A DNA stretch of 64,000 nucleotides from Candidatus Babeliales bacterium (GTDB lineage: Bacteria > Babelota > Babeliae > Babelales > RVW-14), in the NCBI GenBank assembly GCA_019749895.1, contig JAIEPG010000005.1, positions 6,884 through 70,883 on the forward strand, written 5' to 3'. Position 1 is the first letter of the stretch; each line of letters starts with the position of its first letter. Positions 2,731 through 30,220 of the stretch are shown here, piece by piece. Under the pieces are notes generated by a model. It was not told the DNA's origin. It searched no databases and worked only from the letters and a program-made list of their open reading frames with translations. The position numbers and the translations under genes were made by a program.

Positions 2731-3183
2731 CTAAAAAAGTAAGCACGAAGAACCGTACGTTACTACGCCCTCTTCATCAGAATCATTGTAATTGATATCT
2801 GTCGTATCATAAAGAGGATGATTAGGATCTGAGCTAAGTTCATAGGGAACCCGATTTTTTCTTTCTTCTTGTTCTTTTCTTCGTTTTTCATGAAAATCAC
2901 GTTGTATTCGTCGTAAATTTGCAATATACGCACGATTCTTTTGTAAAAATTTCCAATGAGCTTCCAACTCAGCCAATTTCTTATCAAACAACTCTCCAGA
3001 CTTTTTTACGTCTTCGGCTGAAACAGGAAACTGTTCAGACTCTAACGATTCTTGTGAATCACAATCAGGAGAAGGCGTACGATCTTGATGACGTGAGATT
3101 GAACTACTCGCAGCAGCAAACAATGAAGTCGCTGATGCAACAAAACTAACCGAAAGTAAAAGTATCAATAAGTGCTTTTTCAT
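2731..3183 (-). CDS. secreted coiled-coil protein ending in CaaX-like CLLF
   Basis: GGAGGAATT RBS then leader MKKHLLILLLSVSFVASATSLFAAASSS. Charged helical middle (KKLAELEAHWKFLQKNRAYIANLRRIQRDFHEKRRKEQEERK). C-terminus is ...GSSCLLF-stop. The longer ORF to 3393 was rejected. Confidence 0.6.
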   Translation of the reverse strand: MKKHLLILLLSVSFVASATSLFAAASSSISRHQDRTPSPDCDSQESLESEQFPVSAEDVKKSGELFDKKLAELEAHWKFLQKNRAYIANLRRIQRDFHEKRRKEQEERKNRVPYELSSDPNHPLYDTTDINYNDSDEEGVVTYGSSCLLF

Positions 3184-5806: not shown

Positions 5807-5815
5807 AATAACCTC

Positions 5816-5900
5816 CATCCGCCTTCGCTCTGCAAGCTACGGCGCGATTATGCTTAAAAGGGTGGATGCCGCGTCAAAGTTGTTAACGTCGACGGGCATA
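5816..5900. repeat. copy of the dispersed GC-rich repeat family
   Basis: catccgccttcgctctgcaagctacggcgcg...aacgtcgacgggc resembles 2441-2465 and the segment at 41-100 (aacgtagacgggc). Confidence 0.45.
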
Positions 5901-6116: not shown

Positions 6117-6665
6117 TTAAAGAATATGACAGAAACCACTATCAACTGTGGCACCACTGTCCAAGATATGTTCTTGGCCATAAGAAAACTTTATCTTAAT
6201 ATCATTAAAATAATTCTTCAATACAGCACTCAAGCGGCGATACGTAACAACCCAGGTTTCGTGCAACGTTACTTCAGTATGGTTCTCTCTCTTCAATTGC
6301 TCAAGCTTTAAAATAAGCAATGCTTCTTGAAAAGGCCGGCCGCTCAAGCAAATTTCATAGGTTTCAGATTCAGATAGTTGGATGGGAAGGTGGTAGGGAA
6401 CACCAACATCTTCGCCAAAATAGCCACAACCCTTCATGATATGATAGGGAAAAGGCCCTTGTTCGTCTTTTGCTATACACACCTGCTCACTCAATGCTTT
6501 GTCAACATCAAAGGCTAAAAGCTTTTGCATGTCTGGGTTATCTCTATGCGGACTCAAAAAAACAGGTCTAAGACCACGAATATGAGAATAATCATCTATC
6601 CCACCAAACACCGGCACGCTAAAAGCAAACGCAAATAAGACAAAAACAGACCTGAACAAGCTCAT
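6117..6665 (-). CDS. secreted hypothetical protein ending in CaaX-like CHIL
   Basis: Leader MSLFRSVFVLFAFAFSVPVFGG. Domain shared with the C-terminal half of the 3200-4531 product. C-terminus is ...DSGFCHIL-stop. Confidence 0.65.
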   Translation of the reverse strand: MSLFRSVFVLFAFAFSVPVFGGIDDYSHIRGLRPVFLSPHRDNPDMQKLLAFDVDKALSEQVCIAKDEQGPFPYHIMKGCGYFGEDVGVPYHLPIQLSESETYEICLSGRPFQEALLILKLEQLKRENHTEVTLHETWVVTYRRLSAVLKNYFNDIKIKFSYGQEHILDSGATVDSGFCHIL

Positions 6666-8970: not shown

Positions 8971-10235
8971 TATTGAAACCCTTCCGCCAAGAGCGCACGC
9001 GCACGCGCAACTGAAATATTTTTTTCAAGCACCATACAACTGGCCACAGCCTCAATTGCAGCACCGGTGGCGCCGGCAGTGATAGCAATATTTTGACTGT
9101 GCAGCCGCATATGGCCGTACTGAATGCCTTCGGTTACCAGCGCTCGCAGCGCAGCAAAATTTTGTGCCAAGCCCACCGCACCCACAACACCTGCCAACTC
9201 TTGCGCCGTTGCAACGCCAAGTATTTTAAGTGCTAAGCAGGCAGTTGGATGACTTTTGGTAATTCCGCCAACGGTTGCCACTGCCAGAGGCATTTCAACA
9301 TGCCCCACCAAATCACCCGCTTCATTTTTTTCATACCAACTGAGCGGCTGATAACTGCCCGTGCGAGCGGCATAACTATGCACACCCGCTTCGGCAGCAC
9401 GAGTATCGTTACCGGTTGCCAAGCACACAGCAACAACGCCGTTCATAATACCTTTGTTGTGCGTTGCCGCACGATAACTGTCGGCCGCTGCAAAGGCACT
9501 GGCTTGTACCATGGCATCGATGGTTGGCTGACCCAGCATTTCTTGCTTCCAGGTTGCAGCAACACGCACCACGCGCTCGGGAGAAAAATTGGAAACTATG
9601 CACAACCGCACCTGCCCGCCACACATTTTTTGGATCAGCGGGGCTATACGCTCGGCCATGGTATTTACAATGTTGGCGCCCATGGCATTGCCCACATTTA
9701 CACTCAATTTGATTGAGAGGCACAATTCGTTATTGATCAAGAGCTCGTGACCCACCACATCTACCGCCCCTCCGCCATGCTCAAGCAAGACTGGGTCGGC
9801 TTGATTGGCGTAGCTTAAAAGTTCGTTTTTGTGCGCATTAAGAGCCTGCAAGGCTTTGTAACAGTCGGGCACGCTTGCCAACAAAATTTGGCCGGTCATA
9901 AGCGGAAAACCGCCATGCGCAGTAAAGCCTCCGGCAACACGAGCAAGCTTAGCGCCGTACGAAGCAGCCGCAACCACACTAGGCTCTTCGGTAACCATGG
10001 GAATAAGATAATCATTGCCATTAACCATAAAATTGGTCGCTATGCTCAAGGGAAATGACATGACCGAAACAACATTTTCACTCATTTTTTGGGCATGAGA
10101 GATGGCCAAAGAAGCGCCAGACTGCAAGGCCTGAACCTCTTGATTAGTAAGATCGGCAAAGGCTTGAACATGCTGCAAGCGCTCTTCAACTGATTTTTTA
10201 TAAAAAGCGGGAAATCTACTGCACCTGTTTTTCAT
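8970..10235 (-). CDS. mvaA: HMG-CoA reductase, class II
   Basis: ~420 aa soluble form. SENVVSVMSFPLSIATNF, MVTEEPSVVAAAS (class II signature), VGNAMGANIVNTMAE, ATVGGITKSHP. ATG at 10235 preferred over TTG at 10250. Confidence 0.9.
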   Translation of the reverse strand: MKNRCSRFPAFYKKSVEERLQHVQAFADLTNQEVQALQSGASLAISHAQKMSENVVSVMSFPLSIATNFMVNGNDYLIPMVTEEPSVVAAASYGAKLARVAGGFTAHGGFPLMTGQILLASVPDCYKALQALNAHKNELLSYANQADPVLLEHGGGAVDVVGHELLINNELCLSIKLSVNVGNAMGANIVNTMAERIAPLIQKMCGGQVRLCIVSNFSPERVVRVAATWKQEMLGQPTIDAMVQASAFAAADSYRAATHNKGIMNGVVAVCLATGNDTRAAEAGVHSYAARTGSYQPLSWYEKNEAGDLVGHVEMPLAVATVGGITKSHPTACLALKILGVATAQELAGVVGAVGLAQNFAALRALVTEGIQYGHMRLHSQNIAITAGATGAAIEAVASCMVLEKNISVARARALLAEGFQ

Positions 10236-10459: not shown

Positions 10460-12016
10460 ATGAAGTCATTATGCTCATTAGTCAAATCGGTTACAACGCT
10501 TTTTGCTGTTGTAGCTCTATTTGTTGGTTCTGCCTTGTCGGCAGCATCAACAAATCCGCTTAATATTCCTACCAACTTTGCAAGCCAAGCCAATATCGAC
10601 GACCTTGCCACTGGCTATTTTAAGCAAATCAGCGGCATGTCGACCGTCGAAAACAAAATTCAAGCGCTCTCAACATTAATCGACCGCTCAGATCGCGCAA
10701 CGTTTAACGCCTCCACCCAAACGGCTTTTGGCAAACTCGTTGAAGACGCTTACAAAATGGCCACTTCAGAAAGTAGCCAACTATTGCTCTTGCCAGTACT
10801 TTCACAAGCACAGTCAAGCACGTTATTGGCACCAGTACAACAGAATTATGTCGCACAAAATATGATTTTTGGCGTTCTAAAAAACTTAATTACTACCGCT
10901 GCTCAAAAATCGACCTATCAAGATCGCTTAAATAGCCTTTCTGCCATTACCAACCCAAACAATTTTGTAACCAGACGCGGCTTGCGCATAACCCTTACGC
11001 AAGGCGTTCGCGATCTTTACTACCGAACATTGGTACAGTTGTACGAACAACGCACCAACCAAAGCAACCAAGCACAAGCACAACTGCGCGATATCATGCG
11101 CACAGCACTCAAAGGCAGCGTTCCTTTGCTCGACAACCGCCGCCGCCAATACGTAAGCCAACAGCTGTTACCAAAATTAGACGCTTTTAAAGAATTTAAA
11201 AAAGAAAGCACAACCACCAGCACAAGCGGAGCAACGGGCACTGGAGCAACAACTGGCACAACCACCGGTGGAACAACCGCAGGTACTGACAGCTCTGGCG
11301 TTCAAACAGGAGCTGGAAGCGCTACTGGCACTGGCACCTCGGGCACCGGCACAACTGCTGGCAGCCAACTGAGTGCTGGCAATGTTGCAGGCACGGGTAG
11401 TACCGACAGCCAATCAGGAACAGGTAGTGTTTCAGTTCCTGGTATTCCAGATGCTGGCACCGGCACAACCACAGGCACAACTGCAAGCTCAGGTAGCAAA
11501 ACAACGCCAGGTACCGGCAGCCTTGACGCTCAATTAGCAACAGCAACAGGAACAGGTACCTCGACAGCCGATACCAGTAACACGGTATTTAATGACGACA
11601 GAATTAAACGCTTATTAGACAGTATTGGTAAACAACCGCTCATCGAAAATCGCTTACGCTTTATGTCCAAGCTAACTGCAAAATCAGGCTCCGGAACCTT
11701 TAAGCCAGAAACACAACAAGCATACGCCGATCTCTTGGTAGAAGTAGCAAAACAAAGCAGAGAAGTTGCTACGCTTGCTCAAGACCTGCTCAAAGCAGCA
11801 AGCACCTCACCGTTACTCTCAACCAAACAACAAAAGTACGTAACATCAACCATGATACCACAGCAAACTCAACCACTTGCAACAGTAGAAACAACAATAC
11901 CTGGAGCAAAAAAACAAAAGGTCGCCAAAGTAAGAAAAGAACGTCGCGTTCAAAAGAGCGGTAAGCGCCAAGGAATAAAAGCAGGCAAAACCAAAAGAGC
12001 TGCTCAAAATCAGTAA
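10460..12016 (+). CDS. secreted protein with three copies of a novel ~80-aa module, a Thr/Gly-rich linker and a basic tail
   Basis: GAGGAG RBS, leader MKSLCSLVKSVTTLFAVVALFVGSALSAAS. Modules end in LLAPVQQNYVAQNMI, LLDNRRRQYVSQQLLP and LLSTKQQKYVTSTMIP. The T/G linker is roughly nt 11207-11585. C-terminal tail is KKQKVAKVRKERRVQKSGKRQGIKAGKTKR. Confidence 0.7.
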   Translation: MKSLCSLVKSVTTLFAVVALFVGSALSAASTNPLNIPTNFASQANIDDLATGYFKQISGMSTVENKIQALSTLIDRSDRATFNASTQTAFGKLVEDAYKMATSESSQLLLLPVLSQAQSSTLLAPVQQNYVAQNMIFGVLKNLITTAAQKSTYQDRLNSLSAITNPNNFVTRRGLRITLTQGVRDLYYRTLVQLYEQRTNQSNQAQAQLRDIMRTALKGSVPLLDNRRRQYVSQQLLPKLDAFKEFKKESTTTSTSGATGTGATTGTTTGGTTAGTDSSGVQTGAGSATGTGTSGTGTTAGSQLSAGNVAGTGSTDSQSGTGSVSVPGIPDAGTGTTTGTTASSGSKTTPGTGSLDAQLATATGTGTSTADTSNTVFNDDRIKRLLDSIGKQPLIENRLRFMSKLTAKSGSGTFKPETQQAYADLLVEVAKQSREVATLAQDLLKAASTSPLLSTKQQKYVTSTMIPQQTQPLATVETTIPGAKKQKVAKVRKERRVQKSGKRQGIKAGKTKRAAQNQ

Positions 12017-12239: not shown

Positions 12240-13325
12240 ATGAAAAAATTTATGAACGCATTTATTATTGCCCTCGCACTTACCGCCAACGCACTGCCAG
12301 CGGCAGAACCAACGCTTGACGAGCTGCATGCTGCAATAGAACATAACAATATTCCCGTTCTTGATACTTTGCTTCAACAAAATCCAAACATTTTTGAGCT
12401 AGACATTGAAAAAGGAACACCGCTGCACTACGCAGTTAAAAAAAATAATCAAGAAGCTGTGCAAGCACTGCTCAACTACGCCACCCAAAAAAATCTGCTC
12501 TTCCATATTCTTGATAGTAGGGACTGCGATAACCTGACTCCTCTTGAATTTGCAGACCGCCTTGGTCGTACGGGCTGCGCAACCCTCATGCGTAAGTACC
12601 AAAACATGATCGCCTTTGACTATGACGAAGCTGGCAACGCACACCCACTGCCAACAACACCTGTACGCCAACCAGCTTCAAGAGATAATCAGCTCATCGT
12701 GTCCTACAGCACTCTAAACAAACCAATTAAATTGCGCACGGCCATAATCACCAAAAACGTCACCCAAGCTGAGGATCTTTTGACAGAGAACAAAGACCTC
12801 CTTTTAGACCAAGATAGCAATAAAGATACGCTTCTTCATGGCGCTGTCCTTGTGGATAGTTTTGAGTGTGCACAAGTAATACTTGCTCATGCACAACAGC
12901 AAAATGTCTTGAATGCAATCCTCAATGCTCAAAATGCACAGGGACAAACAGCTCTGCATATGGCTGTTATGAAAAAAACAGTGATGTTGATTGCAGACGA
13001 CGAAACGGTCAAGCCAACGAGCCACATGATCGAAGATTCGCGCTTTGCCCAAGAAATTATTGATTATGCCCAAACAAGCGGCACGCTCTCTTTGATTATC
13101 AACATGAGCGATAACAAAAACGAAACGCCACTCCACCTGGCGGCAAAGGCAAAAAATGACGTGTGCATTCGGCTTCTTCTTAGCCAAGGAGCTGACACCC
13201 AAGCCCGTAACTCAATGGGACTGAGTCCCGTTGATCTTCTGCGCAAACGTGAAGATGCCGATCTGATAACCCTTTTCAAAACACAACAGAAAAAACAAAA
13301 ACAGGAAAAGTGCGTAATTTGCTAA
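12240..13325 (+). CDS. secreted ankyrin-repeat protein A1, polybasic + CaaX (CVIC) C-terminus
   Basis: Leader MKKFMNAFIIALALTANALPAA. ANK units GTPLHYAVKKNNQEAVQALL and ETPLHLAAKAKNDVCIRLLLSQGAD. Ends KKQKQEKCVIC-stop. Confidence 0.85.
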   Translation: MKKFMNAFIIALALTANALPAAEPTLDELHAAIEHNNIPVLDTLLQQNPNIFELDIEKGTPLHYAVKKNNQEAVQALLNYATQKNLLFHILDSRDCDNLTPLEFADRLGRTGCATLMRKYQNMIAFDYDEAGNAHPLPTTPVRQPASRDNQLIVSYSTLNKPIKLRTAIITKNVTQAEDLLTENKDLLLDQDSNKDTLLHGAVLVDSFECAQVILAHAQQQNVLNAILNAQNAQGQTALHMAVMKKTVMLIADDETVKPTSHMIEDSRFAQEIIDYAQTSGTLSLIINMSDNKNETPLHLAAKAKNDVCIRLLLSQGADTQARNSMGLSPVDLLRKREDADLITLFKTQQKKQKQEKCVIC

Positions 13326-13361
13326 AGAAAAATAAAAATTAAGAACCAAAAAGGTTATATC

Positions 13362-14276
13362 ATGAAAAAATTTATGAGCCCACTAATTATCGCCCTTGCT
13401 CTTAACGCCAACGCACTGCCTGCAGCATCTAGTTACGGAGAAATCCCTGAAGTAGAATTAAGCAGAGCAATAAAATTAAACGATTTAGCTTCAATAACCT
13501 TCTGGATAAAAACAGCAAACTTACGTACACAAGATAGTGATGGCAATACACCACTTCACCTTGCCATTATTCATAACAACAAACAAGCAACAGCTGGTAT
13601 TATTTTTTCAGCACAAGAACAAAATATTCTTCCTCAAATCTTAAACATAGAGAATAACAAGGGAACTACACCGCTACAACTCGCACAACGTTCTAGCAAT
13701 AAAGAGCACCTAAAATTTATAGCCTCTATTGCCCCCGAAGAAGCACAATTTGTAAAACCCAAACAAAAAACTTTTCTTTTATTCAGGACAATAGGAACGA
13801 ACAACATTGATGAACTGAAACAATTACTGAGACAAGACAACCTCAAGCCAGCACTTCATTTTGCAACCAACAACAACAAACCTGAGTGCTTACATACAAT
13901 CTTGAGCTATGCACAGGAAAAAAACATGCTCTTAGAAACGCTCAGAACAACCAACGAACGCGGCCAAACAGCACTACATGTAGCAGCAATAAATGGCTTT
14001 ACGTTATGTATGCAAGAAATAGTTATGTTAGTACATAGTGATCCTGCAATACTGAATCTACGTGATAATAAAAACCAAACACCTCTTCATTTAGCTGCAC
14101 AACATGATCACGAAGAATGTGTTCGCATACTACTCGCCGCAGGCGCTGATACTGAATTTTCAGACACTCATGGCAATACAGCAGCTCAATGTGCTCGACA
14201 AAATAGACATGAAGACATTGCTATGATCATTGAGAAAAACGAAAAAAACAAAAAAGAAAAATGCGTCATTTGTTAA
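13362..14276 (+). CDS. secreted ankyrin-repeat protein A2, polybasic + CaaX (CVIC)
   Basis: Leader MKKFMSPLIIALALNANALPAA. GNTPLHLAIIHNN, QTALHVAAINGF, QTPLHLAAQHDHEECVRILLAAGAD. Ends KNKKEKCVIC-stop. Confidence 0.85.
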   Translation: MKKFMSPLIIALALNANALPAASSYGEIPEVELSRAIKLNDLASITFWIKTANLRTQDSDGNTPLHLAIIHNNKQATAGIIFSAQEQNILPQILNIENNKGTTPLQLAQRSSNKEHLKFIASIAPEEAQFVKPKQKTFLLFRTIGTNNIDELKQLLRQDNLKPALHFATNNNKPECLHTILSYAQEKNMLLETLRTTNERGQTALHVAAINGFTLCMQEIVMLVHSDPAILNLRDNKNQTPLHLAAQHDHEECVRILLAAGADTEFSDTHGNTAAQCARQNRHEDIAMIIEKNEKNKKEKCVIC

Positions 14277-14305
14277 TGAACGTTTATTTAAAAATAGGTT
14301 ATATC

Positions 14306-14848
14306 ATGAAAAAATTTATGAGCCCACTAGTTATCGCCCTTACACTTAGCACTAACACACTGCCTGCAGCATCAAGCTCTGCGGCAAGCGTACAGCCAGT
14401 AGCTGAGAGATATAGTAAACGTCTCTTTCAAGCTGTCGCAAACAACCAAATGTTCGAAGTATCTAAACTCATCAAAAAGGGCGCCAATCTTCTCGCTCAA
14501 AACGAAGAAGGTTTTACTGTTCTTTATCTAGCAGTGCTTCATAACAACATCGAATGCTTAAACACCATTATTCTTTATGCTCGAGAAAAGAATATCCTTA
14601 ACGAAGTACTTAATGCCCAAACAAGAGAATGGCGCCAAACTCCTCTTCATGCCGCCGCAGCAATGGATCGTAAATCGTGTGTACGTGCGCTCCTTGAAGC
14701 TGGTGCTAACACAACGCTTAAAAATGGAATGGGAAGAACAGCAGCAGAACACGGTCGGCACAACGATTATACAGAACTTGCTATGATTATTGAAAATTAT
14801 GGAAAAGAACCGAAGCAAGAAAAAAACAAAAAATGTATCATTAGTTAA
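14306..14848 (+). CDS. secreted ankyrin-repeat protein A3, polybasic + CaaX (CIIS)
   Basis: Leader MKKFMSPLVIALTLSTNTLPAA. FTVLYLAVLHNNIECL, QTPLHAAAAMDRKSCVRALLEAGAN. Ends KQEKNKKCIIS-stop. Confidence 0.85.
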   Translation: MKKFMSPLVIALTLSTNTLPAASSSAASVQPVAERYSKRLFQAVANNQMFEVSKLIKKGANLLAQNEEGFTVLYLAVLHNNIECLNTIILYAREKNILNEVLNAQTREWRQTPLHAAAAMDRKSCVRALLEAGANTTLKNGMGRTAAEHGRHNDYTELAMIIENYGKEPKQEKNKKCIIS

Positions 14849-14876
14849 AGAGATCATTTTACTCGCTAATAAAAAA

Positions 14877-14905
14877 GGGGCAGGAAATTCCTGCTCCTTT
14901 TTCTT
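14877..14905 (+). terminator. rho-independent terminator after A3
   Basis: ggggcagg-aaattc-cctgctcc stem-loop (8 bp, one G-U) followed by tttttc. Confidence 0.65.
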
Positions 14906-14929
14906 TGTCTCAATTTTTGGCAAGCTGGG
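14903..14929 (+). promoter_or_regulatory. copy 1 of the array-A intergenic promoter-like cassette
   Basis: ctttgtctcaatttttggcaagctggg aligns with the consensus TTTGCATAAATTTTTGGCATGMTACA seen at 15469, 16086, 19043 and 21273. Confidence 0.3.
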
Positions 14930-14977
14930 AAAAAACATAACAGATTTTTTCATGTCAAAAATTTTAGGAAAAAGAAT

Positions 14978-15442
14978 ATGAACAAAAAAATTGTCACGCT
15001 ACTTGCCCTTGCCCTTTCGCTCACCACACACGCCATGCCGGCAGCAACGCCAAACTACCGCCACCTCCTACAAGCAGTTAGTAGCAAAGATGACAATGGC
15101 GACAAAGTACGAGAACTTCTGACCAAAGGTGGCAATGCCAATGGTACAAGCCCGTTGGGCATGCCACTTCTTTTTTTGGCTGCTCGTGGAGGTAAAACAG
15201 AAGTTATGGCAGCTCTCATTGAAAACGGCGCAGTCGTAGACGCTCCAGAGAAAACAACCGGCATAACGCCGTTGCATGTTGCCACAAGGTACGGCCATGT
15301 TGATGCAGTCAAACTACTTCTTGAAAAAAAAGCTAACGTCCACCTTAAAAACAACGAAGGACAAACCGCGCTGGATATCGCTACACAACACCAACTCTCA
15401 GAAATTGTTGAGCTCTTAGAAGCCGCAGACCCATTAGAATAA
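14978..15442 (+). CDS. secreted ankyrin-repeat protein A4
   Basis: Leader MNKKIVTLLALALSLTTHAMPAA. ITPLHVATRYGHVDAVKLLLEKKAN, QTALDIATQH. Confidence 0.85.
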   Translation: MNKKIVTLLALALSLTTHAMPAATPNYRHLLQAVSSKDDNGDKVRELLTKGGNANGTSPLGMPLLFLAARGGKTEVMAALIENGAVVDAPEKTTGITPLHVATRYGHVDAVKLLLEKKANVHLKNNEGQTALDIATQHQLSEIVELLEAADPLE

Positions 15443-15468
15443 CCTTTTCATTTTCAGCATTCTCTTTT

Positions 15469-15495
15469 CTTATGCAACCGTTTTTTGGCATACTG
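15469..15495 (+). promoter_or_regulatory. copy 2 of the promoter-like cassette
   Basis: cttatgcaaccgttttttggcatactg. Confidence 0.3.
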
Positions 15496-15552
15496 AAAAA
15501 AATTTTCTGATGTCAAAAAATAGTAGATAGTGATTTAATGGAGATAGTTATC

Positions 15553-16020
15553 ATGAATAAAAAAATTACTCGCTCATTATGCGCAGCTCTTGCACTTGCC
15601 AGCAACACCCCCGCTACTCATTTAGCCGCCAGCGCTTATGAACTGCGCGAAGTAGCAAGATTTGGACAATGTTTTAGATTGCAGCAACTCATTAGCGTTC
15701 AGATCCCGGTAAATGAAGCCGACATAACAGGCTTAACGGCCTTGCACTGGGCTGCCCAAAACGGCCACTGGCGTTGCGTAGAACTACTCATTCGCGTTGC
15801 TCACGTTGATGCTCTCGATTGGACTCAAGAAACGCCGTTGCACAAAGCCGCGTGGAGCGGCAGCTACAAATGCACACAACTACTACTTAATGCCGGCGCT
15901 AATCCAGCAGCGGTAAATGAATTCGGCCAAACACCACTCGACATTGCACGCGAAAAAGATTTTCAAGCAATTATTGATATCTTACTTGACGCTGCACAAG
16001 AAACTACCAACGAGTATTAA
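15553..16020 (+). CDS. secreted ankyrin-repeat protein A5
   Basis: Leader MNKKITRSLCAALALASNTPA. LTALHWAAQNGHWRCVELLI, ETPLHKAAWSGSYKCTQLLLNAGAN. Confidence 0.85.
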   Translation: MNKKITRSLCAALALASNTPATHLAASAYELREVARFGQCFRLQQLISVQIPVNEADITGLTALHWAAQNGHWRCVELLIRVAHVDALDWTQETPLHKAAWSGSYKCTQLLLNAGANPAAVNEFGQTPLDIAREKDFQAIIDILLDAAQETTNEY

Positions 16021-16085
16021 TTTTTTTGCTTTCTCTTTTTTTTGATCCCATCAATACACGCAATAGTTACTATGTGCTCTTTTTT

Positions 16086-16150
16086 GTTTGCATAATTTTT
16101 TGGCATGATACAATGTGTCACTAAATATCACTAAAAAATTGTTTTTTTAG
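16086..16150 (+). promoter_or_regulatory. copy 3 of the promoter-like cassette plus conserved leader box
   Basis: TTTGCA-16nt-TGATACAAT (extended -10 like) followed by cactaaaaaattgttttt, a box repeated at 19524 and 21306. Confidence 0.45.
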
Positions 16151-16183
16151 TTCTTAACAACCCAAACACCAGGAGAGTATGTC

Positions 16184-16915
16184 ATGATCAAAAAAATTAC
16201 CGGCTCATTATTTATTGCACTCACCATCGTTAACACTGCAATGCCTGCAGCATCATCATTTTCAGATGATTGGAAAGAACAAAAAAATAACGCTCTTTTG
16301 GCCGCCATTAAAAAGGGCGTTGCTGTCACTAGCATAAGAAAACTTCTTGCTGATGGCGCTAATCCTGGTGTCAAAGATGATCTGGGCCAAACACCCCTTC
16401 ATCACGCAGCATCAATGGGCCGCCGCGCATACGTGGAAGAACTTCTTACACACGACATTAGTACTGAAACTAAAGACCCTGCTGGCTGGACCGCCCTCCA
16501 TTTTGCAGCAAACAACGGAAAACTTGTCTGCTTAGAAGTACTTATTGCAAATGGCGCAAAAATTGATACCCAAGCTGAAAATGGTGAAACACCCCTGCAC
16601 CAAGCTGCGTGGATGGGACACCCATCATGCCTCAATGCACTTCTTCAAGCAGGCGCAACTATTGAGGCTAAAGACCGCCTTGGTAAAACCGCATTGCACA
16701 AAGCTGCCTTCAACAACCACTTCACCTGCGTACAAGCTCTTATTGTAGCTGGCGCTAGCGTTAACGCTCTGGACAATAACGACAACACACCGCTTCATTT
16801 TGCCATACTGCGAGGCAACCATGAGTGCGCACAAGCGCTTCTTAGAGCCAACGCCGACACTGATATCATCAACAAAAAGGGCAAAACACCTGCTATGATG
16901 ACACCACAAGAATAA
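16184..16915 (+). CDS. secreted ankyrin-repeat protein A6 (five clear ANK units)
   Basis: Leader MIKKITGSLFIALTIVNTAMPAA. QTPLHHAASMG, WTALHFAANNGKLVCLEVLI, ETPLHQAAWMGHPSCLNALL, KTALHKAAFNNHFTCVQALI, NTPLHFAILRGNHECAQALL. Confidence 0.9.
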   Translation: MIKKITGSLFIALTIVNTAMPAASSFSDDWKEQKNNALLAAIKKGVAVTSIRKLLADGANPGVKDDLGQTPLHHAASMGRRAYVEELLTHDISTETKDPAGWTALHFAANNGKLVCLEVLIANGAKIDTQAENGETPLHQAAWMGHPSCLNALLQAGATIEAKDRLGKTALHKAAFNNHFTCVQALIVAGASVNALDNNDNTPLHFAILRGNHECAQALLRANADTDIINKKGKTPAMMTPQE

Positions 16916-16960
16916 GTTATTTTCTAATAAATCTAGATTAGTAAACAACAGGAGTTACTC

Positions 16961-18319
16961 ATGATTAAAAAGTTCTTTAGTTTCTTTCTCTTAAGCCTTG
17001 CCCTCACCAGCACTGCCTTGCCCACAGCAAGCGAATATGCACACTGGGAAACACCAGAAGAAGCAGAAAAAAAAGTAGCTTACTACATGGCACAACACGA
17101 AGCCAGAAAAGCTTATGAACCAAAGATTGATCGATTTAAAATTGCTGGCCTTGTTCTTGAACACCATCCAAAAGAAACCCCAGAAGAAGCTGCCCAACGC
17201 GTAAAACAAAACCCACACCCAATCAGCGGGGCATCACACAGCGCATACAACCAAGCTCTGTACTACCAAACACTGAGCAGTAAAACTGCACCATCATCAG
17301 ATTATGATTATGATGCAGAAGTTGAACTCGTTGGTTTTATGCTTGAACATACTCAAATAAGCCAGGACGATGCTGCCGAAGAAAAAAGAATAGAACAACT
17401 GAGTCGCAAACTGCAAATGGCAATTGGCAAAGCATCGTGCCAAGAACTACAAGAGCTTATTGATGCGGGCGCTGATGTTAATTTTAGCAGTGGCTATCTG
17501 TTGCCACCGCTTCATCAAGCAGCAGGAGAAGGCCACGTAGATCATGTTAGGTTCCTCCTCAGAAATGGCGCTGACCCTAACAAATTTTTTTTCGAACGCG
17601 GTACACATTTTAGCCCACTCATGCTTGCCTTAGCCCAAAAACGTGCCCACTGCGCCCAACTCCTTATTCAAGCCGGCGCTCATGTTTTTGAAATAGTTGC
17701 GGGCGAAAACACAGCACTTCACATCACGCTTGCCATGACAAACATTCTCGACATTTTGAGTGTAAAACAAAACCAAAAAGAAACCTGGGAATGCTTGCAC
17801 ACCATTCTTGTTTCTATAACCCCTGAAGAACGTACAAAGCTCATTAACGCGCCCAACGCTCTGGGCCAAACCCCGCTACATTTGGCAGCAAAAAGACTTA
17901 ATCTTGAATGCGCGCAACTCTTAATGGACAACGGTGCTAACATTAACGCAGTCGACGGTGATGGCAACAACGCACTTCACTACGCAATTCAAGAGCGAAA
18001 AGAATTAGACAAAAATAATCAGAATCTTATGATGGCTGGCCTGTCACTTGAAGCAAAAGTTGATAACATGATCGGCTATCTTCTGTGGCCAGATTTTTCG
18101 ATAAACAATATTTTTAATCCAAAACCACGCAATCTCTACAAAAAAATCAACATTAATGCACAAAATAAAGCCGGCGAAACAGCTTTGCTACTGGCAAGCA
18201 AAGTTGGCTACTGGAAACCAACACAAACACTCATTAAAGCTGGCGCAAACAAAAGCATCAAAGACCATGCAGGCAACGCATTCCAACCAGTCAACCATCC
18301 AATGTGCATAATTTCATAA
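16961..18319 (+). CDS. secreted ankyrin-repeat protein A7, CaaX (CIIS)
   Basis: Leader MIKKFFSFFLLSLALTSTALPTA. Duplicated ETPEEA segment. PPLHQAAGEGHVDHVRFLLRNGAD, QTPLHLAAKRLNLECAQLLMDNGAN. Ends NHPMCIIS-stop. Confidence 0.85.
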   Translation: MIKKFFSFFLLSLALTSTALPTASEYAHWETPEEAEKKVAYYMAQHEARKAYEPKIDRFKIAGLVLEHHPKETPEEAAQRVKQNPHPISGASHSAYNQALYYQTLSSKTAPSSDYDYDAEVELVGFMLEHTQISQDDAAEEKRIEQLSRKLQMAIGKASCQELQELIDAGADVNFSSGYLLPPLHQAAGEGHVDHVRFLLRNGADPNKFFFERGTHFSPLMLALAQKRAHCAQLLIQAGAHVFEIVAGENTALHITLAMTNILDILSVKQNQKETWECLHTILVSITPEERTKLINAPNALGQTPLHLAAKRLNLECAQLLMDNGANINAVDGDGNNALHYAIQERKELDKNNQNLMMAGLSLEAKVDNMIGYLLWPDFSINNIFNPKPRNLYKKININAQNKAGETALLLASKVGYWKPTQTLIKAGANKSIKDHAGNAFQPVNHPMCIIS

Positions 18320-18356
18320 ATAAGAATTTAAACGATTAAACAACAGAAAGTTAATC

Positions 18357-19034
18357 ATGATTAAAAAATTTATGTTTTTGCTTTTTATTTCCCTCTCTCT
18401 GGCAAACACCGCGCTGCCTGCAGCAACAACATCACACAACGCACAACTGTCACTAAAACAAGACTCAATACTATCGCGCTTTCTTGATGCAGCAAAATAT
18501 AATGAAAGCAAAAAAATTAAAATCTATATTCAATTTCTAAAAGCAGAAAACATTAGCATTGACAGGCTGGGCAAGTTTGGCGAAAGCGCTCTGCACATAG
18601 CCGCAGAAAACGGTCACACTGAAATGGTAAAAATACTTTTAGATGCTGGCGCCAGCCCAGAAGCACTAACCAGAGAGGGCTTAACACCGCTCCACTACGC
18701 TGCCAATTGCGCAATTATGCAATTGTTGCTTGATCGCCACGTCAACATTGAAGCAGTAGACAAGCACGGCAAAACGCCCCTACATTGCGCCGCACTGCGC
18801 GGCCGTGTTGAGTGCTTACAGTTATTGCTCAATAATAATGCCAACCCCAATGTTTTAACCACATTACAACAAACGCCACTTCACTTTGCCGCCGCTCGCA
18901 AAGACGGCGCTGAATGTGTGACAAAACTTCTTGCAGCAGGAGCCGACAAAGATCTTCAAGATTTTTCAGGTAAAACCACTTTTGAAATTGCAGCCTGGCA
19001 CCAGCACAAGCTTGTTATGAGGGCTTTGCGCTAA
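18357..19034 (+). CDS. secreted ankyrin-repeat protein A8
   Basis: Leader MIKKFMFLLFISLSLANTALPAA. ESALHIAAENGHTEMVKILLDAGAS, KTPLHCAALRGRVECLQLLL, QTPLHFAAARKDGAECVTKLLAAGAD. Confidence 0.9.
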   Translation: MIKKFMFLLFISLSLANTALPAATTSHNAQLSLKQDSILSRFLDAAKYNESKKIKIYIQFLKAENISIDRLGKFGESALHIAAENGHTEMVKILLDAGASPEALTREGLTPLHYAANCAIMQLLLDRHVNIEAVDKHGKTPLHCAALRGRVECLQLLLNNNANPNVLTTLQQTPLHFAAARKDGAECVTKLLAAGADKDLQDFSGKTTFEIAAWHQHKLVMRALR

Positions 19035-19042
19035 GTATTTTT

Positions 19043-19070
19043 CTGTGCATAAATTTTTGGTGTGGTACAC
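19043..19070 (+). promoter_or_regulatory. copy 4 of the promoter-like cassette
   Basis: ctgtgcataaatttttggtgtggtacac. Confidence 0.35.
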
Positions 19071-19121
19071 TCCTCGCAAGAGAGTATTTTGAAAAAAAAT
19101 CTTAGATACCCGGAGAGTACC

Positions 19122-19529
19122 ATGATCCAAAAAATTATACGTACATTTTTTTTCACACTGGCACTGGCAAACACGGCATTGCCCACCGGTATACAACCTC
19201 TTGATGCTGCCGACCAAGAGGGCCTTACCGCACTTCACCACGCAGCAATCAACAATCATCAAAACGTTATTGAAGAGTTTGTTGCTGCAAGCGTTTCGCG
19301 TGACGCACAAGACAACCAAGGCTGGACAGCGCTGCACTGGGCCGCCCAGTACGGTCGTTCTGCTTTTGTAGCACAACTTCTTGCAGCGGGTGCCAATCCG
19401 TGCATTAAAAACAAGCAGGGCTGTGGTGCTGCAACCATTGCAGGCATCTACCGATACCGCAGACTCATGCGCCGCTTGCTTGAGGCAGAAGAAATGTGGG
19501 CATTGGCAGAAGAGCATATGTCTCACTAA
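19122..19529 (+). CDS. short ankyrin-repeat protein A9
   Basis: Leader-like MIQKIIRTFFFTLALANTALP. LTALHHAAINNHQNVIEEFV, WTALHWAAQYGRSAFVAQLLAAGAN. Confidence 0.8.
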   Translation: MIQKIIRTFFFTLALANTALPTGIQPLDAADQEGLTALHHAAINNHQNVIEEFVAASVSRDAQDNQGWTALHWAAQYGRSAFVAQLLAAGANPCIKNKQGCGAATIAGIYRYRRLMRRLLEAEEMWALAEEHMSH

Positions 19530-19573
19530 AAATTGTTTTTAGAAAACTATTACATAAGCACCGAAAGTTAATC

Positions 19574-20314
19574 ATGATAAAAAAATTAAGCTCATTTTTT
19601 TTTGCACTCGTTCTAACAAGTAATGCAATGCCAGCAGCATGTTCATCGTCAACACAACAACCATCTGCTGACGACTCAAGTAGTAGCCCCAGAATAGATA
19701 ACCGTACGCTTAACCTCGAATTTGTTAAAGCTTTCCATTCAAAAGCAAGCTGCGAAGAAATACTAGCACTTATTGCTGCCGGCGCCGATGTTAATTGTTA
19801 CTACAACGGAAGTACTTGCTTGCATTATGCAGCAAACAACGGCATGGCCGACCACCTCAGCTTGCTCTTAAGAAATAGGGCAAATCCTGAGCTACGAAGC
19901 GCTACTCTCTTACGAACCCCTCTTCATGAAGCAGTTTCCAGCCTTCACCTTGAATGCGTAAAAAGACTTGTTCAACACGGCGCAGACCTGAATGCACGTG
20001 AACACAGCGGCGGCACACCTCTCCACTTTGCCGTAATGTCCAGCTCTGTGGAACGGGAAAATCCTAAAATAGAACAACTGAAAATCAACATTATAAATAT
20101 GCTTATTTACAAACGGTTTAGCCAGTCAGTGGGAAGCAGCACTGATAGCATTACAGAAAAAAATAATATTAATCTGGATGCGCAAAATATGTTTGGACAC
20201 ACAGCGCTACATGTTGCTTACTTAAGTGGTTATAAAAATATTGCACAAGTTCTTCTGCAAGCCGGGGCCAATCCTAGAATCCCAGACATATTTGGCCAAA
20301 CAGTTGCCAGGTAA
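19574..20314 (+). CDS. secreted ankyrin-repeat protein A10
   Basis: Leader MIKKLSSFFFALVLTSNAMPAA. STCLHYAANNGMADHLSLLL, RTPLHEAVSSLHLECVKRLVQHGAD, HTALHVAYLSGYKNIAQVLLQAGAN. Confidence 0.85.
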   Translation: MIKKLSSFFFALVLTSNAMPAACSSSTQQPSADDSSSSPRIDNRTLNLEFVKAFHSKASCEEILALIAAGADVNCYYNGSTCLHYAANNGMADHLSLLLRNRANPELRSATLLRTPLHEAVSSLHLECVKRLVQHGADLNAREHSGGTPLHFAVMSSSVERENPKIEQLKINIINMLIYKRFSQSVGSSTDSITEKNNINLDAQNMFGHTALHVAYLSGYKNIAQVLLQAGANPRIPDIFGQTVAR

Positions 20315-20361
20315 GATCAAACATAAAAAAGTAATCATAATTTTTAACCCAAAACGTGATC

Positions 20362-21282
20362 ATGATTAAAAAAGTTATATGCTCATTTTTTATAACGCTT
20401 GCACTCGCAAGCACCGCAATGCCTGCTGCACTGCCAGAAAATGACCGACAACTTCTTGTTGCTGCCAAAGATGGCAACATCGAACGCTTACAAGAACTTA
20501 TTAGAGCTGGCGCCAACGTTAACGCAACTAATCAACAGGGCACTACCCCACTTCATGAGGCGACGCCACTTGGCAATACAACATGTGTAGAACTACTGCT
20601 TGCCGCAGGTGCTAACCCAAATGCACAAGATGCAAAAGGAAAAACACCGCTTGAATATGCCGCGCTAATTGGCCATGTCACCTGCGTACAACTGATGGCT
20701 TGGGCACCAACTACCACAATGAGCACTGCCTTAGCGGCCCTGCAATATGCTGCCATGAAAGGTTTTAGCACCTGCTTGCGCGTCCTCATTGCCGCAACGT
20801 CTAGAACTGGCAGGGCAAATAAACAAGGCAACTTCCCACTTCACTACGCAGCAGCGCGTGGCCATTCAACATGCGTACACGATTTGCTTCATCCAACGCA
20901 AGGAGTCCTTTCAAACGTTCACCTTCTCAGCCTTGCAAGTATGGCGCAACTAGTCATTGATCGAGAAAGTGTTAATGCACAAAATAAGTTTGGCAACACA
21001 CCGCTGCACTTGGCAGCCAAAAATGGGCATGTTGCCTGCGTGCGCGAACTTCTTGCTGCGAGTGCCAATCCGTGCATTCGTAATCATGTTGAAAAAAAAC
21101 CTTGCGACCTTGCCACTCACTACGGCGTGATTTACATTTTGGAAAAAGCTGAGCAAATGTGGGCAGAAACGCATGAAGAAGTTTACGACGATCATGATGA
21201 TCTTCAAAGCGTTGAAAAAATGATGTTATATTATTTGGTGTTAAAATCTGCTGAGAATACCTGCTCCTTTTTCTTTGCGTAA
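20362..21282 (+). CDS. secreted ankyrin-repeat protein A11
   Basis: Leader MIKKVICSFFITLALASTAMPAA. TTPLHEATPLGNTTCVELLLAAGAN, KTPLEYAALIGHVTCVQLM, NTPLHLAAKNGHVACVRELLAASAN. Confidence 0.85.
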   Translation: MIKKVICSFFITLALASTAMPAALPENDRQLLVAAKDGNIERLQELIRAGANVNATNQQGTTPLHEATPLGNTTCVELLLAAGANPNAQDAKGKTPLEYAALIGHVTCVQLMAWAPTTTMSTALAALQYAAMKGFSTCLRVLIAATSRTGRANKQGNFPLHYAAARGHSTCVHDLLHPTQGVLSNVHLLSLASMAQLVIDRESVNAQNKFGNTPLHLAAKNGHVACVRELLAASANPCIRNHVEKKPCDLATHYGVIYILEKAEQMWAETHEEVYDDHDDLQSVEKMMLYYLVLKSAENTCSFFFA

Positions 21283-21329
21283 ATTTTTGGCATGCTACAC
21301 GATGTCACTAAAAAATTGTTTTTAGAAAA
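21273..21329 (+). promoter_or_regulatory. copy 5 of the promoter-like cassette plus leader box
   Basis: ctttgcgtaaatttttggcatgctacacgatgtcactaaaaaattgtttttagaaaa. The preceding cctgctcctttttc is the right half of the terminator seen at 14891. Confidence 0.4.
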
Positions 21330-21363
21330 TCATCACCATTACAACATCACACGGAGTTAATTA

Positions 21364-21807
21364 ATGATCAAAAAATTGAGTGCTCTTTTTATTACACTTG
21401 CACTGGCAACCACTGCCCAGCCAGCAGGAGAGGCTCCTGAAGAAAATCCCCAAGCACCTTTACTTTTTGCGGCAGTAGAAACAAGTAATTTACCTTGGCT
21501 CAAGCAACTCATTGCCACGGGAGCCCCCACTAAAGGACTAGGTTTATTACCATTTGCCGCTTCACGCCGTCACACTGCAGTTATTTCTTACTTGCTCGAG
21601 GAAAAAAAAGTTGATGTTAACGAACAAGATGAATTAGGACGAACAGCAGCACACTTGGCCGCGCGCATAGGCGCTACCGAGATTGTTAAAACGCTCACCC
21701 AACACGACGCAGACATCACCATAGCCGACCAGTTTGGCCGCGTTCCACGAGAATATGATGCCGGGCAAGATGCACAACTTACCAGACTTTTAACGCCGGA
21801 AGATTAA
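21364..21807 (+). CDS. short ankyrin-repeat protein A12
   Basis: Leader MIKKLSALFITLALATTAQPA. RTAAHLAARIGATEIVKTLTQHDAD. Confidence 0.75.
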   Translation: MIKKLSALFITLALATTAQPAGEAPEENPQAPLLFAAVETSNLPWLKQLIATGAPTKGLGLLPFAASRRHTAVISYLLEEKKVDVNEQDELGRTAAHLAARIGATEIVKTLTQHDADITIADQFGRVPREYDAGQDAQLTRLLTPED

Positions 21808-26315: not shown

Positions 26316-26346
26316 TAATTTAAGCAGTGAAAAGAAGGAGAATAGT

Positions 26347-26892: not shown

Positions 26893-26904
26893 ACTCCAAC
26901 GACT

Positions 26905-27303: not shown

Positions 27304-27333
27304 AACAACACCCCACACCACGATTGGACAACT

Positions 27334-28107: not shown

Positions 28108-28131
28108 TTCATAACGCTCAAAAGGGAGAGT

Positions 28132-28896: not shown

Positions 28897-29570
28897 AAAA
28901 AGCACTCTTATTTTTTTGTTTCATAACGCTCTTTAAACTCCCGCTCAATGCCGTTGTAACACGTTCACAAAGCCCAGAAGCGCTCGATATTGCCGCACTT
29001 AAACAGGCTTGCTCAAACAACCACAAAGAGCCTCTTGAGCTTTTGTTTGCAGCAAAGAACGAAGAACTGAACGAAAATTATTACACACTCCTGCGCCACT
29101 GCGTGGAGCAAGGCAGCCTCAAATGTCTTAATACTCTTCTCAATCATGCACCAGAGCCATTGGAAGAATCTGATGAGTTACTGGTTCCCTGGTCGGTATG
29201 GGTAGTGCACAATTCAAAACATTGTCTGTGCATCAACGCTTTGCTGAAAAAGCAAGCCAATTTCTCAGCATTGGCAGAAAACGAACTACCACTTCACATG
29301 GCCGCAGGGGCCGGATGCCTGACCTGCGTTGAAAACTTATGCCACTACCTCCTACATACTTTATCTATCAATCACGTGTGGCCTCACTTACTCCAAAAAG
29401 ACAGCGATGGCTTTACTGCACTTGCGCGAGCAAGAGCATCTTTCAATCTTTTTCGGCACGACCAAGCACGTCAAGCAGGCTTTGATTCTTGCGAACAATT
29501 TTTGTTCAGAACTAAACTTGAGCTATCAAATCAACTCACGAGAGATTTATTGCTAGGCTGTAATCTGTGA
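28893..29570 (+). CDS. secreted divergent two-ankyrin protein B6
   Basis: ATGA overlap with B5. Leader MKKALLFFCFITLFKLPLNAVVTRSQS. KHCLCINALLKKQAN...LPLHMAAGAGCLTCVENLC. Confidence 0.7.
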   Translation: MKKALLFFCFITLFKLPLNAVVTRSQSPEALDIAALKQACSNNHKEPLELLFAAKNEELNENYYTLLRHCVEQGSLKCLNTLLNHAPEPLEESDELLVPWSVWVVHNSKHCLCINALLKKQANFSALAENELPLHMAAGAGCLTCVENLCHYLLHTLSINHVWPHLLQKDSDGFTALARARASFNLFRHDQARQAGFDSCEQFLFRTKLELSNQLTRDLLLGCNL

Positions 29571-30220
29571 TAAAAAAAATTATCTTGTTACTAACTACAC
29601 TCGCACTCTCCAGCCAGGCACACGGTCGTGCCATCATTATGCTCGACCCTGCAGGCGATGCTCATGAGCTGGGCCGCAAACTGGCGCAAGGTTATGAGCG
29701 CGGCGCAACGCTGACGTTGGCCGAAAAGCTGCAGCAAGAACTGGCACAAGAACCAGAAATCTACCCACTTTTAAGCCGCCAACCTGGCGAACAATGCCTA
29801 CCCCTCCAGGCAGCTTCGTTTGCCAACCGGCTCAACGTCAACCTGTTTGTACGACTGCACTGCTACCACGAGCTGACCGCCAAGCCCCGCATTTATCTGT
29901 ATCATCAACTGCGCAACCCGCTAACCGACCTTGCCACGCGCACATTCAATCAGCTCAGCTTTACCCCTCTTTCACAAGCTCACCTACCCAACCTACGCAC
30001 CACACTCAAACGAATAGAAAGCATAAAAGAAACACTAATAACGCCGCAGTACCAGCAGTTTTTCGACTGCTTTGGCCCTTTTGGCTTACCACTCAAACCA
30101 CTAGCCGGTGTGCAGCCTGCAGGACTTATCATTGAAATTGGCTTGAGTAGCTCAACCAAACTAGAAAGCCTGATTCAGCCAATCAAACAGGCTTTAGTTA
30201 ACGCATGTCTCATTTCCTAG
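29567..30220 (+). CDS. secreted Amidase_3-like (N-acetylmuramoyl-L-alanine amidase fold) protein, divergent
   Basis: GTG start overlapping the B6 stop. Leader MIKKIILLLTTLALSSQAHG. IIMLDPAGDAHELGR...ERGATLTLAEKLQQEL...NLFVRLHCY parallels the IDPGHGG...E..L.LA..L...DLFVSIHAN layout, but the GHGG His is absent. Confidence 0.4.
   Translation: MIKKIILLLTTLALSSQAHGRAIIMLDPAGDAHELGRKLAQGYERGATLTLAEKLQQELAQEPEIYPLLSRQPGEQCLPLQAASFANRLNVNLFVRLHCYHELTAKPRIYLYHQLRNPLTDLATRTFNQLSFTPLSQAHLPNLRTTLKRIESIKETLITPQYQQFFDCFGPFGLPLKPLAGVQPAGLIIEIGLSSSTKLESLIQPIKQALVNACLIS

Follow-up and report, generated by a model that had tools for sequence, protein, structure and literature searches.

Host prenylation of bacterial effectors that end in a CaaX box is established for AnkB and the Pel proteins of Legionella and for SifA and GtgE of Salmonella (PMC2916131, PMC4322725, PMC13081727, PMC13423502). 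AnkB, an ankyrin effector with the box CVLC, is farnesylated by the host (PMC2916131), and the farnesylated box tethers it to membranes of the host or the vacuole (PMC2916131, PMC4322725). The Pel proteins, SifA and GtgE depend on the Cys for their localisation to membranes (PMC4322725, PMC13081727, PMC13423502). All the experimentally shown host-prenylated bacterial effectors that we found in the literature are substrates of a type III or type IV secretion system (T3SS or T4SS). Here we describe CaaX-like tails on seven proteins with Sec-type leaders, encoded in a 64-kb stretch of DNA (the window) from a metagenome-assembled genome of a Candidatus Babeliales bacterium (Dependentiae/TM6). These proteins are probably, if by no means certainly, Sec-exported effector candidates that would be lipidated by the farnesyltransferase (FTase) or geranylgeranyltransferase type I (GGTase-I) of the host. 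An earlier account of this DNA made from its letters alone (the sequence-only reading) had taken the known bacterial CaaX effectors to be lipidated by their hosts, and the literature on AnkB, the Pel proteins, SifA and GtgE agrees.

Like AnkB (LegAU13/Ceg27), an ankyrin-repeat effector of an amoeba-infecting bacterium, the ankyrin proteins A1 and A2 of the window carry a CaaX box whose X is Cys (CVLC in AnkB; CVIC, or CAIC in a sister species, here). AnkB differs in being a Dot/Icm type IV substrate that has an F-box and no Sec leader, whereas A1, A2 and their neighbour A3 have a cleavable-type leader, a Lys-rich linker and no F-box by Pfam, and the homology is that of generic ankyrin repeats. 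The Legionella Pel/CMP proteins and Salmonella SifA and GtgE offer a second likeness, since they are unrelated effectors of one genome that each end in CaaX, with both FTase and GGTase-I types represented. They are injected by a T4SS or T3SS, whereas the window proteins bear Sec leaders and belong to another phylum. A Legionella genome holds about 7-11 CaaX effectors, compared with 7-8 in 64 kb here.

Dependentiae are a widespread phylum of obligate protist parasites, very few of which are in culture, and their genomes code for very large sets of ankyrin and orphan proteins with leaders. Every member cultured so far lives as a parasite inside protist cells (PMC6561590, PMC4776705). Two of them, Chromulinavorax destructans and Babela massiliensis, encode large paralogous families of ankyrin-repeat proteins with Sec signal peptides that are presumed to be secreted effectors (PMC6561590, PMC4776705), but no C-terminal host-lipidation motif has been reported for these proteins, and our literature search found no paper linking Dependentiae with CaaX. 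In the isolate Chromulinavorax, signal peptides occur on 44% of coding sequences and on 78% of 98 ankyrin proteins; signal peptides on most Dependentiae ankyrin proteins are thus already published (PMC6561590), and the leader-rich ankyrin content of the window fits this picture of the phylum. The claim that a leader combined with a CaaX box had not been described holds for experimentally supported cases, of which we found none in the literature, but needs qualifying because HP0953 of Helicobacter pylori has been predicted, at the PROSITE level, to have a signal peptide as well as a CaaX box, CALR (PMC9367236). HP0953 is a lone PROSITE pattern match with an atypical X (Arg) in an extracellular bacterium, and comes without enrichment, conservation or lipidation evidence. 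New here are the phylum, the leader-plus-CaaX architecture and the high density; lipidation mimicry itself has been known since 2010 and is no new principle.

CaaX tails, their excess over chance and their fit to the rules of eukaryotic enzymes

We identified CaaX-like tails, with Cys at position -4, on the leader-bearing ankyrin proteins A1, A2, A3 and A7 of one array, on an ankyrin protein of another array and on two orphan proteins; the last three are named here after their tails CSLQ, CHIL and CLLF (Table 1). As the sequence-only reading had it, CVIC in A1 and A2 and CIIS in A3 and A7 are followed at once by the stop codon. The tails CSLQ, CHIL and CLLF, too, were found where they had been claimed, each ending at the stop. 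All seven are genuine, but an eighth leader-bearing tail, CLIS on an amidase_3-like protein, had been overlooked. The gene calls match the proteins of the NCBI Prokaryotic Genome Annotation Pipeline in the six cases compared (A1, A3, A7, CSLQ, CLLF and CLIS). The description of the carriers in array 1 as leader-bearing ankyrin proteins was also borne out: A1, A2, A3 and A7, together with the CSLQ protein, score above the gathering threshold for ankyrin families of Pfam (Ank, Ank_2 to Ank_5), and their leader features were recognised by heuristic. In A7, the N-terminal part holds about 150 non-ankyrin residues. No Pfam family was found for the CHIL and CLLF proteins.

The 69 curated proteins of the window contain 1.8% Cys. 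Nine of them have Cys at position -4, where 1.25 would be expected (P = 4.6e-6), and the other positions from -1 to -15 hold 0-3 Cys apiece, in keeping with the earlier claim of an excess beyond about one chance case. A strict CaaX pattern (C[AVILM][AVILMF]X$) was seen six times against 0.17 expected (P = 2e-8), the expectation being the same whether taken from composition or from the internal frequency of that 4-mer. Counting the A1-A3 paralogues once leaves four against 0.17 (P = 2.5e-5). In control open reading frames (ORFs; 462 from other Dependentiae, 262 from metagenome loci and 173 from viral contigs), the strict pattern was found in 1 of 897, which gives a Fisher P of 7e-7 for the window, 1e-4 with the paralogues collapsed and 1e-3 with CLIS dropped too (3/66 vs 1/897). 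The metagenome loci, 29 HMG-CoA reductase loci from the Joint Genome Institute (JGI) whose reductases are about 50% identical, have no ankyrin genes, and among their 262 ORFs two had Cys at -4 and none a CaaX box. On the viral contigs matched by an A1-A3 alignment (18 loci), none of 36 ankyrin-like ORFs had Cys at -4. By independent families, 5-7 with Cys at -4 were counted against 1.2 expected (P = 0.008 to 2e-4). In addition, each of the eight leader-bearing tails with Cys-4 has I or L as its a2 residue (position -2), against a background of 17% (P = 2e-5 over six independent families). These counts confirm that the observation is statistically real. The SecA tail CCGR was considered as a CaaX box and rejected; it is a zinc-finger tail shared with other Dependentiae SecA proteins.

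The a2 residue is the position of greatest weight for prenyltransferases, and X selects between the enzymes: L or F makes a box of GGTase-I type, and S, C, Q, M or A one of FTase type. Leaving CLIS aside, X is C, S or Q in five of the seven tails and L or F in two. The box of A3 and A7, CIIS, is exactly the native box of yeast Ras2, with a prenylation score of 0.997 and predicted cleavage (PMC9231725). CVIC, CAIC, CSLQ, CLIS, CLIF and CVLC are all contained in an experimentally derived training set of yeast FTase-positive sequences, and the corresponding negative list holds none of them; CSLQ is also in the yeast cleavage-positive set (PMC9231725). Taken with the counts above, this supports the view that the seven tails, genuine and enriched, obey the substrate rules of eukaryotic CaaX enzymes as far as their residues can tell.

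Conservation, linkers and leaders

L081, the syntenic locus of a sister species (GCA_019746485.1), has 68-88% nucleotide identity to the window, and six orthologue pairs (A1, A2, A3, A7, CHIL and CLLF; CSLQ lay outside the set) with 67-81% amino acid identity were compared. Cys at -4 is retained in all six, as are the stop and the register, and the class of X is constant in each pair (C or S in four, L or F in two). The boxes contain synonymous codon changes (TGC/TGT, GTA/GTC, TCA/TCG, CTT/CTC), and 1-residue indels just upstream of the box in A1 (a deletion in the sister) and in the CLLF protein do not disturb the register. In the CHIL pair, about 95% of the core is identical, compared with 6 of the 15 residues ahead of the box and 4 of 4 in the box itself; this apparently hypervariable linker with an invariant box resembles the arrangement of Ras-like proteins. 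A strain variant of the CLLF protein (P0314, from a Logan assembly) is identical over 138 residues but carries the sister-type tail ..GETHGSSCSLL, which suggests that CLLF tails are exchanged or evolve fast between strains, with Cys-4 staying in place. The paralogues offer a stronger argument than conservation between the sister species. A1 and A2 are 31% identical (BLASTP) and A3 is 34-52% identical to them (alignment), and despite this divergence all three have kept both the Lys-rich linker and the box.

We also noted a leader-bearing ankyrin protein in the sister locus (L081 16938-17624) that ends ..PPGCVQQ. Its presumed window counterpart (19574-20314), paired by assumption, ends ..GQTVAR, and this non-conserved and non-canonical Cys-4 is probably due to chance.

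In the AlphaFold model of A3 (mean predicted local distance difference test score, pLDDT, of 82), the ankyrin core at residues 31-165 is confident (pLDDT > 90), the last helix stops at residue 164, and the 17 residues at the end, NYGKEPKQEKNKKCIIS, are mostly below a pLDDT of 50. The model would place the box on a 17-residue disordered basic tail, and such a flexible and exposed linker is what a CaaX box requires. For the other tailed proteins a flexible linker is likewise predicted from where the Pfam domains end and, in the CHIL protein, from its hypervariable linker. The AlphaFold model of the CHIL orphan (mean pLDDT 47) was unusable and was set aside.

The tracts of A1-A3 hold five Lys per 10-11 residues, broken up by E, Q and N, and those of the sister orthologues are similar by eye. 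Over the 15 residues before the Cys, the net charge is +4 in A1 and +2 in A2 and A3, against 0 in A7, -1 in CSLQ, -3 in CHIL and -4 in CLLF. These tracts had been likened to the polybasic region of K-Ras. The Lys-rich linker is there, but the likeness was overstated, given a net charge of only +2 to +4 and no run of at least six Lys. K-Ras4B joins a polybasic tract to the box CVIM in a two-signal logic, and the flexible Lys-rich linker and box of A1-A3 are analogous in logic only. Their basic tract is much weaker than that of K-Ras4B and they have no GTPase domain, while the linkers of A7, CSLQ, CHIL and CLLF are neutral or acidic.

At the other end, the leaders of the CaaX-tailed proteins start with MKK or MIKK and have an h-region of 12-14 residues with a mean Kyte-Doolittle hydropathy above 2, followed by candidate cleavage sites with small residues at positions 16-24. 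By this heuristic they have the features of Sec leaders of the signal peptidase I type, and cleavage is predicted. Three other signals were considered and rejected: a lipoprotein signal, since the leaders have no lipobox Cys; an N-terminal transmembrane anchor, since the h-region spans just 12-14 residues; and a sorting domain of the PEP-CTERM/MYXO-CTERM type, since just three residues follow the Cys, whereas in known C-terminal sorting signals that contain a Cys, MYXO-CTERM among them, a transmembrane segment comes after it. In most of the 12 leaders of array 1, M[IKN]KK and the h-region are followed by [LM]P[AT]A. With its Pro near -3, this conserved LPAA is unusual as a c-region and might do more than serve as a peptidase site. 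Leaders differ in flavour from array to array; in array 3, many begin with M[LFI]KK and have S.(H/Y)GA at the end of the h-region.

Proposed host lipidation and competing explanations

The seven proteins represent five independent families (A1/A2/A3, A7, the CSLQ ankyrin protein, the CHIL orphan and the CLLF orphan) in which the box would have evolved or been retained. Judging from the leader features, they would first be exported by Sec and lose the leader. They would then pass through the outer membrane, and through a vacuole membrane if there is one, to reach the host cytosol; a type II secretion system (T2SS) or vesicles are candidate routes, both having been proposed for Chromulinavorax. 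T2SS genes are core in TM6 (PMC4776705). The window encodes a secretion ATPase of the T2SS/type IV pilus (T4P) type, a candidate part of the outer-membrane export step whose link to the CaaX proteins we infer. In the cytosol, host enzymes would prenylate Cys-4 through a thioether, with FTase acting on boxes that end in C, S or Q and GGTase-I on those that end in L or F, and the motif rules suggest that aaX trimming and methylation would probably follow. The effectors would finally be anchored on host membranes, perhaps with a bias of A1-A3 to acidic membranes such as the plasma membrane owing to the Lys-rich linker, and with the A7, CSLQ, CHIL and CLLF proteins going to endomembranes.

CaaX prenyltransferases are cytosolic eukaryotic enzymes, so a selected CaaX box on a protein with a Sec leader would indicate, from sequence only, arrival in the host cytosol and on host membranes. 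The boxes would then be a sequence-level sign that Dependentiae move Sec-exported proteins to the host cytosol without a T3SS or T4SS. If this is confirmed, host prenylation, a trick seen in Proteobacteria that have injection systems, would also be in use in a distant phylum and on Sec-exported proteins, a shortlist of effectors would become testable in yeast or amoebae without culture of the parasite, and the question of how Dependentiae deliver effectors would become sharper. The main value would be a testable handle on effector destination.

Several observations weigh against host lipidation. The interpretation offered by the sequence-only reading is plausible and partly supported, in that the tails proved genuine, enriched and rule-conforming, but prenylation and delivery to the host cytosol are predictions from sequence. 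Retention of Cys-4 in six of six pairs is not significant by itself against a background identity of 74% (P ~0.16). The tailed families were found only in two sister genomes; the CHIL family has only two members in 5.8 billion proteins, and no relatives of A7 were found in JGI metagenomes. Within the window, Cys-4 is not significantly more frequent in leader-bearing than in other proteins (8/47 vs 1/22, P = 0.25), in a comparison that is underpowered and limited to the window. There was no CaaX enrichment in the 462 ORFs of other Dependentiae, from loci that lack effector arrays; the 34 other Dependentiae YchF loci, being without such arrays, are uninformative about CaaX boxes on effectors elsewhere in the phylum. 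CHIL, CLLF, CSLL and CIIC are in neither the positive nor the negative yeast list (PMC9231725). Finally, the CLIS tail sits on a probable periplasmic housekeeping enzyme, which means that accidental CaaX endings do arise. Its amidase_3-like family has 464 homologues with E up to 0.001, and among the best 150 of these Cys-4 occurs only in the 89%-identical sister orthologue (..NTCLIF), where the class of X shifts from S to F. This tail on a cell-wall enzyme is probably chance or very recent and lineage-specific, and CLIS is a doubtful member of the set.

Three alternatives to host lipidation have to be weighed, each of them less likely. The one that survives best holds that a single ancestral tail was duplicated in A1-A3, that the Cys at -4 of a few unrelated proteins is coincidence, and that none of these tails is functional. 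A1-A3 are indeed tandem paralogues and hence one event, the CLIS tail of the amidase-like protein looks accidental, the CVQQ tail in the sister genome is not conserved, and pairwise conservation falls short of significance. Against this, the strict pattern remains in excess with the paralogues collapsed (4 vs 0.17), and also with CLIS left out (3/66 vs 1/897); the 5-7 independent families exceed the 1.2 expected; a2 is always I or L; and the class of X is kept in every effector orthologue pair. We consider chance with paralogy an unlikely account of the tails.

Somewhat more doubtful is a use of the terminal Cys by the bacterium itself, in the periplasm, on the surface or in vesicles, as a disulfide tether, for metal binding, or for lipidation or processing of its own. 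The first stop of proteins with Sec leaders is the oxidising periplasm, and a free Cys is reactive there; CVIC, CAIC and CIIC double as C-x-x-C; and a mevalonate gene module adjoins array 1. The last Cys is dispensable, however, for window CIIS corresponds to sister CIIC, and a C-x-x-C redox or metal motif was rejected because this Cys swaps with Ser between orthologues. The residues after the Cys follow the rules of eukaryotic FTase and GGTase-I and match tested substrates, and we know of no bacterial sorting system that reads a Cys three residues from the end. Pfam found no prenyltransferase, CPBP or ICMT domain among the scanned proteins of the window, the only proteins covered by that search.

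It is also improbable that the boxes are vestiges, simply left over from ankyrin genes captured from a eukaryote or giant virus. Bacterial ankyrin repeats are commonly attributed to transfer from eukaryotes, and Cys-4 occurs in 9 of 116 unrelated ankyrin matches to A2, several of them eukaryotic, including ANKDD1A-like proteins (CSIC, CILS, CAIL). The best matches to A2 outside its family are generic, however, at 24-35% identity, and the boxes are also found on the non-ankyrin CHIL and CLLF orphans. Most paralogues in the same arrays have no box, which indicates that it was gained or kept selectively. Furthermore, Cys-4 was found in 0 of the 36 ankyrin-like ORFs on viral contigs and in 0 of 20 leader-bearing bacterial ankyrin matches, while the tails have lasted through 65-70% sequence divergence among paralogues. 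As an observation in its own right, the A2 matches P0008, P0036, P0055 and P0087 have the CaaX-like ends CSIC, CILS, CAIL and CRLL, and several are animal death-domain proteins; there may be prenylated ankyrin proteins in eukaryotes too.

Least credible of all is the idea that the host does not read the boxes and that the bacterium would itself prenylate Sec-exported proteins with farnesyl or geranylgeranyl diphosphate drawn from an archaeal-type mevalonate pathway of its own, encoded next to array 1, anchoring their C-termini to the outer membrane or to shed vesicles, which if true would amount to a bacterial C-terminal protein-lipidation system.

Gene content of the window

The window has about 69 real genes, about 45 of which open with a Sec-type N-terminal leader. 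Thirty-one encode leader-bearing ankyrin-repeat proteins by Pfam; they take up nearly half of the window and lie in three arrays, apart from a lone gene (Table 1). Eight members of array 1 (A4-A6 and A8-A12) have ankyrin repeats and the array-type leader but no CaaX box, and A7 sits between the two groups. The YchF gene is 99% identical to its match in a Candidatus Babeliales metagenome-assembled genome and 60-74% identical to those of about 30 other Dependentiae/TM6 genomes.

Table 1. Position of the tailed genes, their tails and other features in the window
Feature	Position	Strand	Length (aa)	Description	NCBI entry	Tail in sister species
A1	12240..13325	+	361	leader-bearing ankyrin protein	MBY0353593.1 (identical)	
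A1 leader	12240-12305			MKKFMNAFIIALALTANALPAA		
A1 Lys-rich linker	13278-13310			KTQQKKQKQEK		
A1 CaaX box	13311-13322			CVIC		CVIC (..KKQKEKCVIC)
A1 stop	13323-13325					
A2	13362..14276	+	304	leader-bearing ankyrin protein	100%-identical entry	
A2 leader	13362-13427					
A2 linker	14232-14261			EKNEKNKKEK		
A2 CaaX box	14262-14273			CVIC		CAIC (orthologue P0002, 77% identity)
A3	14306..14848	+	180	leader-bearing ankyrin protein	MBY0353595.1 (identical)	
A3 leader	14306-14371					
A3 linker	14801-14833			GKEPKQEKNKK		
A3 CaaX box	14834-14845			CIIS		CIIC
A7	16961..18319	+	452	leader-bearing ankyrin protein	MBY0353599.1 (identical)	
A7 CaaX box	18305-18316			CIIS; end ..FQPVNHPM-CIIS, without basic tract		CLIS (..NHPMCLIS)
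CSLQ protein	43598..44419	-	273	leader-bearing ankyrin protein, array 3	MBY0353630.1 (identical)	
CSLQ box	43601-43612			end ..EERKKSQT-CSLQ		
CHIL protein	6117..6665	-	182	leader-bearing orphan	K2W90_04460; 100%-identical entry	
CHIL box	6120-6131			end ..SGF-CHIL		CHIL
CLLF protein	2731..3183	-	150	leader-bearing orphan; true start MKKHLL	MBY0353585.1, K2W90_04445 (identical)	
CLLF box	2734-2745			end ..YGSS-CLLF, acidic linker		CSLL (..HGSS-CSLL)
CLIS protein	29567..30220	+	217	leader-bearing, amidase_3-like	MBY0353614.1 (identical)	
CLIS box	30206-30217			end ..NA-CLIS		
Ankyrin array 1	12240-21807	+		12 members, A1-A12		
A4-A6	14978-16915	+		array 1, without CaaX box		
A8-A12	18357-21807	+		array 1, without CaaX box		
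Ankyrin array 2	25449-29570	+		Pfam ankyrin, leader-bearing		
Ankyrin array 3	42417-53654	-		Pfam ankyrin, leader-bearing		
Lone ankyrin gene	55035-56258	-		leader-bearing, outside the three arrays; Ser run		
Secretion ATPase	38135..39385	-		T2SS/T4P type; Pfam T2SSE, E 1e-128		
YchF gene	53841-54965					
Mevalonate module	1049-2538 and 6770-10235	-		archaeal type		
518-aa protein	10460-12016	+	518	leader-bearing		
Ser-run proteins	3200-4531, 4556-5818	-		Ser homopolymer runs		
FUN14	39408-39806	-				
PQ-loop transporter	58568-59185	-				
NurA nuclease domain	61278-62444	-				
tRNA-Leu(TAA) and tRNA-Cys(GCA)	40711-40881	-		adjacent		

The mevalonate module beside array 1 is of archaeal type and syntenic in the sister genome. 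It comprises a GHMP (mevalonate) kinase, a DUF35/OB_ChsH2_C protein, a thiolase, an HMG-CoA-synthase-like protein and an HMG-CoA reductase, and the nearest JGI metagenome reductases are merely about 50% identical to the last of these. We also found families of eukaryote or archaea type, namely FUN14, a PQ-loop transporter and a NurA nuclease domain. FUN14 is a family of the mitochondrial outer membrane. In other Dependentiae, its orthologues end ..GCKLG and have a Cys at -4 for a cause unrelated to CaaX.

Directly upstream of A1 lies a gene for a 518-aa leader-bearing protein that has no Pfam family and is conserved in the sister genome. It has a long low-complexity core rich in Thr, Gly and Ser, and its C-terminal tail lacks Cys and is strongly basic, with a net charge of +6 over the 15 residues preceding the last four. 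Ser homopolymer runs of up to about 16 residues, at or shortly behind the leader, occur in three other proteins including that of the lone ankyrin gene, and two of these three have basic C-terminal ends (..KRGNRE, ..KRTTRR). Finally, genes for tRNA-Leu(TAA) and tRNA-Cys(GCA) are adjacent, and simple ORF calling gives spurious ORFs there.

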